Below are positions 24,042-36,795 of a stretch of 64,000 nucleotides of DNA, one piece after another; within the stretch, counting starts at the first letter, position 1, and the number at the start of each line of letters is the position of its first letter. This stretch comes from an uncultured Elusimicrobia bacterium. GTDB lineage: Bacteria; Elusimicrobiota; Elusimicrobia; FEN-1173. Where the stretch lies: the NCBI GenBank assembly GCA_964484135.1, contig CAZAEL010000002.1, forward strand, positions 4,700-68,699, in the 5' to 3' direction. Under the pieces are notes generated by a model. The model worked only from the letters and a program-made list of their open reading frames with translations, did no database searches and was not told where the DNA came from. The translations under genes and the position numbers were made by a program.

Positions 24042-27359
<3,318 letters not shown>

Positions 27360-27581
27360 AGGTTCGTTGAAAAAAACGTTATCCACACCCTGTGGGGGGA
27401 AATCCACAGCCTGTTAAAACGTTTTAAAAGAGGGCTTTTCGGTCTTCCCAGGGGTTTTCGACGTAAAAAATCGGTCTTTCTTTCCACAACAACCCGCGCG
27501 TCATCCGCGAGCCAAAAAATATCGTTTTTCCGTCGGAGAACTGACGGAAAAAACCGCTCTTTGACTTTTTTCCGTTTTTAC

Positions 27582-27610
27582 TTGACATACTATATATGGT
27601 TGTGTAGACT
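27582..27610 (+). promoter_or_regulatory. Candidate promoter for nrdR-nrdJ: TTGACA(27582-27587)-17 nt-TAGACT(27605-27610)
   Basis: Consensus -35 with 17-nt spacer; a second TTGACT lies at 27561. Confidence 0.35.
27586..27599. promoter_or_regulatory. AT-rich imperfect palindrome CATACTATATATGG: candidate NrdR box 1
   Basis: The ATATAT core is conspicuous in a 67% GC genome and overlaps the promoter spacer. Established NrdR boxes are roughly 16-bp palindromes with a tATaT centre. Confidence 0.25.
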
Positions 27611-27620
27611 GGGAGGGCAC

Positions 27621-27722
27621 ATGATGTTGGGGATCGAGGCCATCAAGGGGGTCCGTCGGTCTCCCCTACCGGTAGGCAAAACCACGGGGGACACCCCCAT
27701 ATATAGAATGAAGGATCTCTAA
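27621..27722 (+). other. 33-codon upstream ORF (MMLGIEAIKGVRRSPLPVGKTTGDTPIYRMKDL) with GGGAGGG RBS, ending 4 nt before nrdR
   Basis: ATG at 27621 lies 4 nt after GGGAGGG; stop TAA at 27720-27722; the frame differs from nrdR. Confidence 0.25.
27697..27710. promoter_or_regulatory. CCCATATATAGAATG: candidate NrdR box 2, about 20 nt upstream of the nrdR ATG
   Basis: Second isolated ATATATA core, about 110 bp from box 1. Confidence 0.2.
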
Positions 27723-27726
27723 ATAA

Positions 27727-28248
27727 ATGCGCTGCCCGTCTTGCGACCATCCGGAAGACCGCGTCATCGATTCGCGTCCGCTGGAGTCCGCCACCGTGAT
27801 CCGGCGGCGCCGGGTCTGCGCCCATTGCGGCAAGCGGTTCACCACGTACGAGCGGGTGGAGGCCACGCCGCTCATGGTCATCAAGAGCGACAACCGGCGC
27901 GAGCCCTTCAGCCGGGAGAAGCTCAAGCAGGGGATCGTGCGCGCCTGCCAGAAAAGGCCGATTTCTTCCGACACCATCGAAAAGATGGTGGCCGAAGTGG
28001 AGTACGAACTGCAGGACTACGTGTTGGAGGTCCCCAGCCGGGAGATCGGGGACAGGGTGCTGAAGAAGCTTTACCAGATGGATTCGGTGGCGTACGTCCG
28101 GTTCGCCTCGGTGTACAGGCAGTTCGGCGACCTGGACGCCTTTCTCCGGGAACTGAAGAAGCTGAAGAAGGTGCACCAGCGGGAGCAGGCGCGGGGGAAG
28201 GGGAAACGTCCGTCCGCGCAGGAGAGTTCGTTGTCGCAGGCGGTGTGA
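27727..28248 (+). CDS. nrdR: Transcriptional repressor NrdR (zinc-ribbon + ATP-cone)
   Basis: MRCPSCDHPEDRVIDSRP...RRRRVCAHCGKRFTTYE. Confidence 0.92.
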   Translation: MRCPSCDHPEDRVIDSRPLESATVIRRRRVCAHCGKRFTTYERVEATPLMVIKSDNRREPFSREKLKQGIVRACQKRPISSDTIEKMVAEVEYELQDYVLEVPSREIGDRVLKKLYQMDSVAYVRFASVYRQFGDLDAFLRELKKLKKVHQREQARGKGKRPSAQESSLSQAV

Positions 28249-32867: not shown

Positions 32868-34031
32868 ATGGCATTTTTCATCGGACGTGACAGGGAGGCC
32901 CGGCGTTCCTACGGGTTCGACGAGGTGGCCATCGTGCCGGGTTCCATGACCGTTGACCCGGAGGACACCAATACGGAGACGGCCATCGGCCCGGTCAAGC
33001 TCAAGATCCCCTTCGTGGCCAGCGCCATGGACGGGACCGTGGACGTGAAGTTCGCCCTGGCCATGAGCCAGCTGGGCGGCCTGGCCGTCCTGAACCTGGA
33101 GGGCCTGCACACGCGGTACGAGGACCCCTCCGGCCCGTACGAGGAGATCACCAAGGCCTCCCCCGAGGAGGCGCCCAAGGTCTTCCAGAAGATTTACTCC
33201 CAGCCCATCAAGGAGGCGCTCATCGCCAAGCGCGTCCAGGAGATCAAGAAGGGCGGCGGCGTCGCGGCCGTGTCCTGCGTGCCCAAGAACGCCAACAAGT
33301 TCGGGCCCCTGGCGGCCAAGGCGGGGGCGGACGTGTTCGTGGTGCAGGGCACCGTGGCCACCGCCCAGTACGTGTCCTCCAAGGGGACGCCGCTGGACCT
33401 GGCCAGGCTCTGCAAGGAGATCCATATCCCCGTGGTGATCGGGAACGTGGTGACCTATTCCGCCGCGCTGGAGCTGATGGAGACCGGCTGTTCCGGCATC
33501 CTGGTGGGCGTGGGGCCCGGCGCGGCCTGCACCTCCCGGGGGGTGCTGGGCATCGGCGTGCCGCAGATCACGGCCACGGTGGACTGCGCCGCGGCGCGGG
33601 ACTTCTATTTCAAAAAGACCGGCCGTTACGTGTCCATCATCACCGACGGCGGCATGACCAACTCCGGCGACGTGTGCAAGGCCTTCGCGGCCGGGGCGGA
33701 CCTGGTGATGATGGGGTCCACCTTCGCCCGCGCCAAGGAGGCGCCGGGCCGGGGCTACCACTGGGGCATGGCCATGCCGGACCGTTACCTGCCCCGCGGC
33801 ACCCGCATCTACGTCGGCACCAAGAGCACGCTGGAGGAGGTGCTCTTCGGGCCCGCCACCCAGGAGGAGGGGCTCCAGAACTTCGTGGGCGCGCTCCGCA
33901 CCTGCATGGGGTACGTGGGCGCCAAGACCATCAAGGAGTTCCAGCTCGCGGAGCTCATCATCGCGCCCGAGATCAAGCACGAGGGCAAGCTCTTTCAGCA
34001 GGCCCAGCGGGTCGGCATGGGGAAAAAGTAG
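32868..34031 (+). CDS. IMP dehydrogenase / GMP reductase family protein (GuaB-like, no CBS insert)
   Basis: [35 protein letters not shown] and catalytic-loop region [20 protein letters not shown] (catalytic Cys motif). Confidence 0.75.
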
Positions 34032-34195: not shown

Positions 34196-34423
34196 ATGAA
34201 TCGAATCATGTACAAGGGGTGTGAGATTCATGCGGTGCCTTTTCGGTCGTCGGTTTCCAACCGGTGGAACGCGCATGTCTATATTTCGGTCAACCACGGC
34301 AAGACGGTGGACACCCTGCAATTCACGGACGGGTGCGGCGTGGAGCGGGAGGACAGGGCCGTCCAGCATTGCTTCGACTTCGGCAGGCAGATCATCGACG
34401 GCAAGCTGGCCGTGCCGGTGTGA
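34196..34423 (+). CDS. Hypothetical small protein (75 aa)
   Basis: GGAGG RBS 5 nt upstream of ATG; no recognisable motif; GC intermediate (about 58%). Confidence 0.4.
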   Translation: MNRIMYKGCEIHAVPFRSSVSNRWNAHVYISVNHGKTVDTLQFTDGCGVEREDRAVQHCFDFGRQIIDGKLAVPV

Positions 34424-34468
34424 TACGGGGCTCTGCATTTAAGGGCCCTCTTGGATTTTAGGAGGGTT

Positions 34469-35266
34469 ATGGCAAAAAGATTGATTTTTATCAGTTGCGG
34501 ACAACAGACCAAGGTTGAAAAGAATTTAGGCTCCGAGATAAAAAACCTGGTGGATCAAACCCCAGGTTTTGAAGGGTATTTTGCGGATACCGTCAATTCA
34601 CTGGAGGCTTTATCTGTAAACATATTTGAGGCTATCAGAAAGTGTGATGGCGCGATTTTCTTTTTTCATGAAAGAGGAAAGGTGGTAGATTCTAGCGGGG
34701 AAATTTGGGGAGTGCGTTCTTCTGTTTGGGTTAATCAAGAGATTGCTCTTTTGGCCTATCGCAAGTATTTAGAACAAACGGGAATCCCTATCATTGCGTT
34801 TAAAGATGGGTCAGTGTTGTTGGAAGGTGCTATGACAAATCTTATTGTTAATCCGCATTTAATTTCTTCAAAAGAGGAAATTGAATCGAAAATATCCAAA
34901 TGGCTACTGGAGGCAAAGTTTCCAAATAAAGATATTGATATGAATAAGCCTGGTTTTGAGAAAAAATGGGGTCGTCTGTCGGAAAATGCAAGGTATGTCC
35001 TTATGGCTTTAGTTGATGAGGGTGGAAAAGATGTGGCAGAACATCTCGTGCGACAGGGGTTTAAAACGTATCAACGCTTTCCAAGCGAGCAAGAAGGAAA
35101 CGGTGCTTTTACCCTGGCAAAGGCCGAGCTTTTCAATGTTGGATTTATTAAGAAGGAAGAGGCATTTAGAATAATGAATATTCACGAGAATTGGCAACTT
35201 ATGATCAAAGAAGCCGTTGTGTCACTAAAAGAACAAATCGAGTTAGAGAAACTCTTACTTAAATGA
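34469..35266 (+). CDS. DUF4062-like (TIR-like / nucleoside 2-deoxyribosyltransferase-like fold) domain protein with about 130-aa C-terminal extension; low-GC (about 40%) foreign gene; alternative TTG start 34451
   Basis: RLIFISCGQ...EIKNLV...[19 protein letters not shown]...[28 protein letters not shown] matches the DUF4062 pattern (IFIS ... CD ... RYG ... S-x-E). GGAGGG RBS. The stop TGA overlaps the guaA ATG (ATGA). Confidence 0.55.
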
Positions 35267-36795
35267 TCATCATCCTTGATTTTGGGTCGCAGTACACGCA
35301 ACTGATCGCCCGCCGCGTGCGGGAGGCCAACGTGTTCTGCGAGATCCATCCTTTCAATTATCCCCTGGAAAAAATTCAAGCGGCCCGGCCGCAAGGCGTC
35401 ATCCTGTCCGGCGGGCCCTCCAGCGTGTACGACAAAAAGGCCCCCAAGTCGGACCCCGGCGTGTTCGACCTGGGCGTGCCGGTGCTGGGCATCTGCTACG
35501 GCCTGCAGCTCATGATCTCCCACTTCGGGGGGCAGGTGACCAGGTCCCCCCGGCGGGAGTACGGGCCCGCGGACATCGAGGTCCTGCAGGGGACCGGCAA
35601 CGGCCTCTTTTCCGGCCTGCCGGAGCGTTTGCCCGTGTGGATGAGCCACGGCGACGCGGCCGAGTCCCTGCCCGCGGCTTTCATGCCCCTGGCGCGGACG
35701 CCCAACGCCCCGTACGCCGCCTTCAAGCACCGGGAGCGGAGCCTGTACGGCGTGCAGTTCCACCCGGAGGTGCACCACACGCCCCAGGGCAAGGACATCC
35801 TGGCCAACTTCCTTTTCAAGATCTGCGGGGTCAAGCCGGACTGGAACATGCGCGACTTCGCGGAGGAGGAGATCCGCAAGGTCCGCCAGCGGGTGGGGAA
35901 GGAAAAGGTGATCCTGGCCCTGTCCGGGGGGGTGGATTCCTCCGTGGCCGCGGCCCTGCTGCACCGGGCCCTGGGCAAACAGCTCATCTGCATCTTCGTG
36001 AACAACGGCCTGCTCCGCGCCGGGGAGGAGGAGCGGGTCCGGGAGGTCTTCGGCTCGGCCCAGGGGTACGTGACGCGCGTGGTGGACGCCCGCCAACGGT
36101 TTTTGAGGAAACTCAAGGGCGTCACCGACCCGGAGAAAAAGCGCAAGATCATCGGCGCCGAGTTCATCGCGGTCTTCGAGGAGCACGCCAAGAAACAAAA
36201 GGGCGTGAGGTTCCTGGCGCAGGGCACGCTGTACCCGGACGTGATCGAGAGCGTGTCCGTGAAGGGCCCCTCCGCCACCATCAAGACCCACCACAACGTG
36301 GGGGGCCTGCCCAAGCGCATGAAGATGGAGCTGGTGGAGCCCCTGCGGTTCCTGTTCAAGGACGAGGTCCGCGCCCTGGGCAAGGAGCTGGGCCTTCCCG
36401 ATGAAATCCTTTTCCGCCAGCCCTTCCCCGGCCCGGGCCTGGCGGTCCGCGTGCTGGGCGAAGTGACGGAGGAGAAGCTCCGCAAGGCGCGGGAGGCGGA
36501 CCTGATCGTGGAGCAGGAGGTCCGCGCCGCGGGCCTGTACCGCAAGCTCTGGCAGTCTTTCGCCGTGCTCCTGCCCGTGAACAGCGTGGGCGTCATGGGG
36601 GACGAGCGCACGTACGAGAACGCCATCGCGGTGCGGGCCGTGAACTCCGTGGACGCCATGACCGCGGACTGGGCCCGCCTGCCGGACCAGGTGCTGGCCA
36701 AGATTTCCTCCCGCATCATCAACGAGGTGCGGGGCGTGAACCGGGTGGTGTACGACATCTCTTCCAAACCGCCTGCCACCATCGAGTGGGAATAA
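35263..36795 (+). CDS. guaA: GMP synthase (glutamine-hydrolysing)
   Basis: [21 protein letters not shown]...GICYGLQLM...SGGVDSSV; 510 aa. Confidence 0.95.

Follow-up and report, generated by a model that had tools for sequence, protein, structure and literature searches.

A strain-specific, low-GC gene wedged between guaB3 and guaA in an Elusimicrobiota genome encodes a candidate anti-phage effector with a TIR/NDT-type fold

A 64-kb stretch of an Elusimicrobiota metagenome-assembled genome (hereafter the window, within which all positions are numbered) carries a foreign gene between the purine-biosynthesis genes guaB3 and guaA, and this gene encodes a protein of 265 amino acids (aa), which we label X265. 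The gene was acquired horizontally by a very recent, strain-specific insertion, and its product combines an N-terminal domain with the fold shared by TIR domains and nucleoside 2'-deoxyribosyltransferases (NDTs) with a variable C-terminal winged helix. We propose that X265 is a stand-alone anti-phage gene of the abortive-infection type, encoding a phage-triggered N-glycosidase of an unnamed family, and put the probability of this reading at about one half.

The foreign origin of the gene is apparent from its composition. Counted over 200 nt at a time, GC content is 0.355-0.465 at ~34400-35300 against 0.58-0.77 on either side; the X265 gene itself, at 0.393, lies 5.1 standard deviations under the window mean of 0.650, and its GC content at third codon positions (GC3) is 0.37, against 0.95 in guaB3, 0.92 in guaA and 0.92 in purC. 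Elsewhere in the 64 kb, GC content is low in one place alone, the carB-nrdR intergenic region (27300-27800, minimum 0.46), which looks like ordinary regulatory DNA. An initial annotation of this DNA had rightly picked out the low-GC block, had placed the gene between a guaB-family gene and guaA with its TGA lying over the guaA ATG, as it does, and had regarded it as foreign, as the empty site described next bears out. It gave the protein as 266 aa, one residue too long, and called the 75-aa open reading frame (ORF) just upstream an orphan; that ORF encodes a CV_2116-domain protein and is present in sister strains without the insert.

The empty site is found in the sister strain L095 (GCA_964519745.1), whose DNA is 94-96% identical to the window. 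Homology between the two reaches the stop codon of the CV_2116 ORF (34423) and picks up again at the guaA ATG (35263), and where the window has 839 bp, L095 has a spacer of 27 bp, GCTTCCGCTCGGGGAGGGGGAGGGCGC, bearing the guaA Shine-Dalgarno sequence. An empty site in so close a strain (~95% DNA identity) shows the insertion to be very recent and strain-specific; in the comparison of orthologous loci, the same low-GC gene is also missing from the nearest species representatives. A donor origin for the AT-rich codons at the start of guaA was rejected: L095 shares them, and they are native. The guaB3 gene was not called in L095 because of masked runs of N (68 N in L095:1700-3100), and it is there at 96% nucleotide identity; guaB3-guaA-purC, with gaps of 0-125 bp in many relatives, is the ancestral order. 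Flanking direct and inverted repeats of at least 10 nt were looked for at the insert ends, and neither a target-site duplication nor terminal inverted repeats were found; the insert holds no recombinase gene and, as the ORF ends directly on the guaA ATG, there is no room for an attC site. A mobile cassette, be it an insertion sequence, a transposon or an integron cassette, was rejected on these grounds. The insertion also changed the start of guaA: the L095 spacer contains GGAGG, whereas the 25 nt upstream of guaA in the window, TCGAGTTAGAGAAACTCTTACTTAA, contain no Shine-Dalgarno sequence. Since guaA is left without one of its own, its translation would now rely on termination-reinitiation at the ATGA overlap and thus be coupled to that of X265.

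X265 has few close relatives. Only 28 homologs were found among 5.8 billion proteins, with 38-47% identity, about 255 aa in length and none with a Pfam domain; their N termini (MAK[RK]LIFISCGQ) back the ATG at 34469 as the start of the gene. An exhaustive profile search of 1.84 billion representatives returned 1,059 proteins at E<=1e-3 and 377 at E<=1e-30, from which the best 147 were taken as superfamily representatives. In the alignment of X265 with its close homologs (29 sequences), the N-terminal half is strongly conserved and the C-terminal half far more variable: E17, G21, F38, A39, G61, S85, W87, Q90, E91, P107, E119 and G120 are invariant, and I6-F7, S9-C10-G11-Q12, Y37, R69-G70, R83-S84, V86 and N89 nearly so. 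The AlphaFold model (predicted local distance difference test, pLDDT, 91.4; predicted template modelling score, pTM, 0.70) has two domains. The first is a flavodoxin-like beta/alpha domain with a beta-hairpin inserted after strand 3, and Foldseek matches it best to TIR-STING (2.7e-4), followed by NDT, DNPH1, the TIR-APAZ protein of SPARTA and the retron Ec86 effector; a Foldseek search of a viral library likewise returned NDT and TIR proteins. Proteins of the TIR/NDT fold canonically bind their substrate in a pocket at the C-terminal edge of the sheet, and the conserved residues of X265 (S9-C10-G11-Q12, E17, Y37-F38-A39, H67-x-R69-G70, R83-S84-S85-x-W87-x-x-Q90-E91 and E119-G120) all lie at this edge, in the loops that follow the strands and at the beginnings of helices, a placement read from the topology. 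In particular, the third helix (residues 86-102) carries W87-V-N-Q-E91, in which W87 and E91 are invariant in the 29 sequences and at least 90% conserved in the 147; at the level of sequence it reproduces the C-helix WxxxE motif of TIR domains, whose Glu is essential for NADase activity (PMC10641520). The second domain, a winged helix, has a net charge of about zero, and few elements are less conserved than its putative recognition helix, a pattern that would fit a fast-evolving sensor or assembly role better than sequence-specific DNA binding.

The initial annotation assigned the N-terminal part of X265 to DUF4062 and, more broadly, to a TIR-like or NDT-like fold; the fold holds, as the predicted model and its Foldseek matches to TIR-STING, NDT and DNPH1 attest, whereas membership of DUF4062 is not supported. 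With PF13271 (DUF4062), X265 has no match at E<=1 in hmmscan, and none of the 147 representatives matches at E<=0.01. Against a dedicated DUF4062 profile, built from Eva01 (pMW2, L180:3863-4837) and 120 PF13271 proteins, hhalign gives a probability of 0.86% and a pairwise E of 0.064, and reciprocal hidden Markov model (HMM) searches with hmmsearch yield no significant match (best E 0.035 in a 121-sequence database). Despite the low probability, the hhalign alignment is in register, which is consistent with a common fold and possibly with a very distant common origin. The predicted model of X265 has the five-stranded parallel beta-sheet with alternating helices that defines a TIR-like fold (Osinski et al. 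2026), and both the canonical TIR fold and the NDT fold can be recognised in it. The invariant E91, at the start of the third helix, lies at a place that seems topologically equivalent (by alignment and model, not by superposition) to that of the catalytic Glu of DUF4062 proteins, which is needed for NADase activity and defence in KpSwz (E97), Eva01 (E87) and Vulcan (E98). The TIR profiles PF01582, PF13676 and PF08937 (ThsB_TIR) and the PADLOC TIR models do not match X265; PF05014 (Nuc_deoxyrib_tr) matches neither X265 at E<=1 nor any of the 147 relatives; PDB profile searches with two family alignments (A1 and A2) gave no match; and PADLOC-DB v2, which the initial annotation had proposed for the full genome, recognises no family at E<=1 in X265 or in the CV_2116 ORF. 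The X265 family is thus a separate, unnamed sequence family that shares the TIR/NDT fold and its chemistry-defining motif.

The wider family is modular. In the best 147 of the 1,059 proteins, a core of 150 aa occurs with at least 37 C-terminal tails that BLAST distinguishes and at least 13 N-terminal heads, practically none of them known to Pfam; the largest tail groups have 42, 22 (the winged-helix type of X265) and 8 members. A single core with many tails matches the effector-plus-variable-sensor logic of the single-gene DUF4062 systems Evangelion and Vulcan, where that logic was shown by experiment (10.64898/2026.06.25.731849; 10.64898/2026.09.04.749371). The surroundings of the homologs include defence and mobile-element genes. 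One homolog lies in a CHAT - X - AbiTii - DUF4145 - DUF3800 island that occurs on 14 contigs, and other close homologs lie with MazE/PIN and an N6_N4 DNA methyltransferase, with HTH_17 and Nmad2, or with KfrA; at ~35 further non-redundant metagenome loci, type II restriction-modification systems, prokaryotic Argonaute with SIR2, mad2, SNase, integrases and transposases are mixed with housekeeping genes. P0071 and P0046, which have other tail types, lie on contigs too short to show their neighbours. No family is common to more than 3 of 141 neighbours of the homologs, and this lack of a conserved partner argues that X265 is a stand-alone module. Phage or plasmid carriage of the family was searched for in IMG/VR (with two patterns), INPHARED and PLSDB, and no match was found. 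Most homologs are not wedged into operons, with gaps to their neighbours of typically 40-370 bp, but two more are, as X265 is, low-GC wedges in housekeeping operons: homolog P0004 (L002:3329-4102; GC 0.42) separates two moeA genes in a host whose GC is 0.61-0.68 and has the same ATGA overlap with the downstream gene, an independent event of like geometry, and homolog P0029 (GC 0.38) lies between acyl-CoA carboxylase genes, with immediate flanks of ~0.54 and a locus GC of 0.48.

In relatives, defence cargo has repeatedly landed at the guaB3|guaA junction itself. A BglII-type restriction endonuclease and an N6/N4 methyltransferase occupy it at L031:7176-8676, and DUF6941 with a type II methyltransferase at L018:6080-7716; L017 has a homologous 1.67-kb gap with a DUF6941 ORF and no intact methyltransferase ORF. 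In L096-99, whose guaB3 proteins are at least 90% identical, a 2.5-kb cargo consists of a CV_2116-like ORF, a Zincin_1 protein and a 359-aa protein (L096:8606-9685, also in L097-L099) whose gene ends 8 bp before guaA and whose C-terminal domain is NDT/TIR-like (Nuc_deoxyrib_tr 5.8e-5; PADLOC TIR effector 2.8e-6). Homology between this protein and X265 was rejected (hhalign probability 0.1%), and two different NDT/TIR-fold genes at one position may simply have met by chance in a defence hot spot or may point to a connection with guanine-nucleotide metabolism. The idea that the junction is a generic variable spot is partly ruled out: in five lineages it holds purE or purE/purK, which are ordinary operon members, and at least four others hold foreign cargo. 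The CV_2116 ORF (GC 0.59, GC3 0.82) lies outside the low-GC insert. L095 has it without X265, L096-99 have a version of 81 aa, and L015 and L016 lack it; its composition suggests an earlier insertion at this junction, since partly ameliorated. CV_2116 itself, a small protein encoded by a prophage, has a structure solved by nuclear magnetic resonance and no known function (PMC3397530). Two further observations concern the same operon: sister strains have a 508-aa NonGDSL/GDSL-lipase-like gene between guaA and purC (L096:11211-12737), which the window does not have, and a low-GC relative has a 450-bp guaB3-guaA gap with a 55-aa fragment resembling, by eye, the four-helix-bundle "23S rRNA intervening sequence" protein (L030:7219-7386), which may be a remnant of earlier cargo.

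In the mechanism that we propose, the N-terminal domain of X265 would be an N-glycosidase whose pocket is formed at the C-terminal edge of the sheet by SCGQ, YFA, H.RG, SS.W..QE and EG, with the invariant Glu91 of the W87-x-x-x-E91 motif as the catalytic residue. It would cleave NAD+ (nicotinamide adenine dinucleotide), the most likely substrate, or a nucleotide. The variable winged-helix tail would act as a sensor or assembly module that keeps the enzyme silent until an infection cue is received, whereupon activated X265 would lead to abortive infection. The gene, promoterless in this scheme, would be expressed from the guaB3-guaA-purC operon, and translation of guaA would be tied to it through the lost ribosome-binding site and the ATGA overlap.

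The defence role assigned here, also among the options of the initial annotation, is the best-supported reading of a protein whose function is so far a prediction, and several observations weigh against it. X265 has no match in Pfam (E<=1), NCBIfam, PADLOC, PHROGs or the PDB sequences, and the only sequence signals towards TIR families are weak: TIR_2 is matched by 2 of the 147 relatives (best 9.1e-5), neither among the 10 longest members, and ThsB_TIR by 1 of the 147 (0.0069), and these matches may lie off the core. Glu91 is proposed as the catalytic residue on topology and motif rather than on structural superposition. No defence gene adjoins X265 in the window, where its neighbours are purine-biosynthesis genes; many neighbours of its homologs are likewise housekeeping genes, and the defence surroundings of the family were judged by family counts rather than by a per-gene statistical test; as a yardstick for such enrichment, NIR showed 20% against 3.9%.

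The purine neighbours give some weight to a metabolic alternative, that X265 is an N-glycosidase or transferase of the NDT/DNPH1/MilB type recruited to the guanine-nucleotide locus for purine salvage or nucleotide sanitation and not for conflict. Its best structural matches are indeed nucleoside 2'-deoxyribosyltransferases, the CMP hydrolase MilB and the dNMP glycosidase RCL/DNPH1, the gene is probably co-transcribed with guaA and translationally coupled to it, and L096-99 have a sequence-unrelated NDT-like gene directly upstream of guaA. We nevertheless consider this unlikely. The gene is strain-specific, unameliorated and absent from a strain 95% identical in DNA; the Pfam profile Nuc_deoxyrib_tr does not match it; the distribution of the family is patchy, with 28 close homologs in 5.8 billion proteins; the fusion of one core to dozens of tails is unusual for a housekeeping enzyme; and the other cargo at the same junction consists of restriction-modification systems. 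Co-option into guanine-nucleotide metabolism, which the initial annotation had also raised, finds no family-wide support: purine or guaA neighbours do not recur, and neither GATase nor GMP_synt_C is among the neighbour families listed for the ~35 metagenome loci. The way in which the gene sits on guaA invites another explanation, that it is a selfish passenger or toxin-like gene of no benefit to the host, kept because its excision would remove the only translation-initiation route of guaA. The loss of the guaA GGAGG, the overlap of the X265 stop with the guaA start, the identical ATGA geometry of P0004, the position of P0029 and the absence of any antitoxin or immunity gene as a constant companion all fit such a passenger. 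It is improbable all the same: most homologs are not wedged into operons, and the putative active site is strongly conserved across the family, which points to selection on the function of the protein and not merely on its position. A passenger of this kind would, besides, be compatible with a defence role.

Structure comparison at full length raises a different possibility, an atypical, phosphorylation-independent transcription factor resembling a response regulator, with a receiver-like flavodoxin domain and a winged-helix DNA-binding domain. Foldseek aligns the whole of X265 to HP1043, an orphan atypical response regulator (2hqr, E 3.2e-4), and to VanR (7lz9, 7lza), and an alpha/beta domain followed by a winged helix is the architecture expected. 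The response-regulator reading was rejected on its active-site residues and is very unlikely: throughout the family, S9-C10-G11-Q12 at the end of beta1 and H67-x-R69-G70 at the end of beta3 occupy the positions where a receiver domain has its acidic pocket and phospho-acceptor Asp, the third helix carries the conserved S.W..QE as in TIR/NDT enzymes, and at least 37 other tails occur on the same core. Finally, a metagenome-assembled source and an extreme contrast in composition might suggest an assembly chimera or a decaying pseudogene without function. Both junctions are reproduced in L001, a separate Logan assembly of 3,465 bp (99.94% identical), which may stem from the same reads, and they are exact at the stop codon on one side and the start codon on the other, and an assembly artefact is unlikely; in addition, the ORF is intact, keeps all family-invariant residues and is modelled with a pLDDT of 91, and this explanation as a whole is scarcely credible. 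The coordinates of the features discussed are collected in Table 1, together with a terminator-like hairpin in the 45-nt leader of the X265 gene, which could be an attenuator of read-through or a remnant of the donor; a consensus scan finds 6 such sites against 1.9 expected, which makes it weak evidence.

Table 1. Features of the guaB3-guaA region, in window coordinates (ORF, open reading frame; aa, amino acids).
Feature	Position	Strand	Basis or remark
guaB3-family gene related to inosine monophosphate dehydrogenase, native upstream flank	32868..34031	+	TIGR01304, 4.5e-132
75-aa CV_2116-domain ORF	34196..34423	+	NF046097, 61.8 bits (cut-off 58); weak DUF6566
Inserted foreign segment, 839 bp	34424..35262	+	Replaces the 27-bp CV_2116-guaA spacer of the empty site; L095 homology stops at 34423 and resumes at 35263
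Hairpin then T-rich tract, terminator-like	34427..34449	+	Consensus scan; left edge of the insert, within the leader of 45 nt
AGGAGG Shine-Dalgarno of the X265 gene	34460..34465	+	Read from the sequence
X265 coding sequence, 265 aa	34469..35266	+	ORF list; 28 full-length homologs, 38-47% identity; AlphaFold pLDDT 91.4
N-terminal catalytic-type domain, aa 1-150, flavodoxin-like beta/alpha TIR/NDT-type fold	34469..34918	+	
C-terminal winged-helix domain, aa 160-265, F-93/TubR/MarR-like	34946..35263	+	
ATGA stop/start overlap	35263..35266	+	X265 TGA (35264-35266) shares TG with guaA ATG (35263-35265)
guaA (guanosine monophosphate synthase; GATase and GMP_synt_C), native	35263..36795	+	Profile matches; AT-rich first codons also in the empty-site strain

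TIR-fold effectors that cleave NAD+ or nucleotides run as a common thread through immunity, from bacteria to humans. A second lineage of such effectors, DUF4062/NIR, was demonstrated in 2026 and acts in Swarozyc, Evangelion, Vulcan and Vesta and in human TEP1. If the X265 family is active, it would be a further independent, possibly third, lineage with a catalytic signature of its own. No current annotation or defence-finder profile detects the family, which comprises about a thousand clusters and offers a rich repertoire of fused sensor domains to mine; its conserved motifs and alignments amount to a ready HMM for defence-finding pipelines. Going further, we entertain as a tentative and rather doubtful extension that X265 founds an unrecognised TIR/NDT-fold superfamily (~1,000 clusters at 50% identity; signature SCGQ ... 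H.RG ... SS.W..QE ... EG; no sequence relative in Pfam, PADLOC, NCBIfam or the PDB) and with it a new class of modular, single-gene anti-phage effectors, in which one core would serve dozens of sensor tails and some members would wedge themselves, without promoter or recombinase, into essential operons and capture the translation initiation of the downstream gene (guaA here, moeA in L002), so that their loss becomes costly. The locus is of interest in its own right: between the empty and the filled site, a spacer of 27 bp has been replaced exactly, and nature thus offers a clean example of how a candidate defence gene settles in a genome, in which the newcomer would be driven by a housekeeping operon and would take over translation initiation of the essential guaA. 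The idea that embedding in operons stabilises mobile defence genes is thereby made testable.

Among known systems, the closest parallel is DUF4062/NIR. Three preprints of 2026 describe DUF4062/NIR domains as TIR-like NADases in the Swarozyc, Evangelion, Vulcan, Vesta and Avs systems (including 10.64898/2026.06.25.731849 and 10.64898/2026.09.04.749371); Evangelion is a single gene with a variable auxiliary region, and for the single-gene systems Eva01, Vulcan and KpSwz, NAD+ depletion and abortive infection have been demonstrated. Like X265, these proteins have an N-terminal TIR-like core of five strands and ~110-150 aa that starts with "IFIS", a conserved Glu after the third strand and a variable C-terminal auxiliary or sensor region, and they are single genes, mobile and patchily distributed. 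Unlike them, X265 shows no statistical sequence relationship to DUF4062, has SS.W..QE instead of an acidic-SYT/E motif on its catalytic helix, adds the invariants SCGQ, H.RG and EG and the beta-hairpin after strand 3, and has a winged-helix tail and no plasmid or phage matches.

With canonical TIR NADases (ThsB, AbTir, SARM1, TIR-STING and the TIR-APAZ of SPARTA), X265 shares the "F-I-S" of the first strand, the W-x-x-x-E of the C-helix and probably the role of an effector module fused to diverse sensors. It differs from them in matching neither the TIR, TIR_2 and ThsB_TIR HMMs nor, by sequence profile, any solved TIR, and its winged-helix partner and its SCGQ and H.RG motifs are not TIR features. 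In the NDT superfamily (NDT, DNPH1/RCL, MilB/BlsM and the retron Ec86 effector), the Glu on the third helix acts as nucleophile or base, and X265 has a Glu on its third helix as well; its helix motif probably lacks the D-x-G-[ST] residues that precede the Glu in NDTs. A defence use of this fold is known from the retron, whose NDT-type effector (7xjg) is among the Foldseek matches of X265, but X265 has no PF05014 match, is only 9-15% identical to NDT proteins in structural alignments and has the additional winged-helix domain. Nearest in position is the 359-aa protein of L096, which sits at the same guaB3|guaA junction, is likewise packed against guaA (with an 8-bp gap) and has an NDT/TIR-like domain; it differs in showing no detectable homology, in having its enzyme domain at the C terminus and in belonging to a multi-gene cargo that includes a Zincin_1 protein. 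Neither the libraries nor the literature searched describe the X265 family, its catalytic signature, its combination with a winged helix or the geometry of its wedging into operons, while the kind of system is a familiar one, a TIR-fold effector joined to a variable sensor in a single gene.

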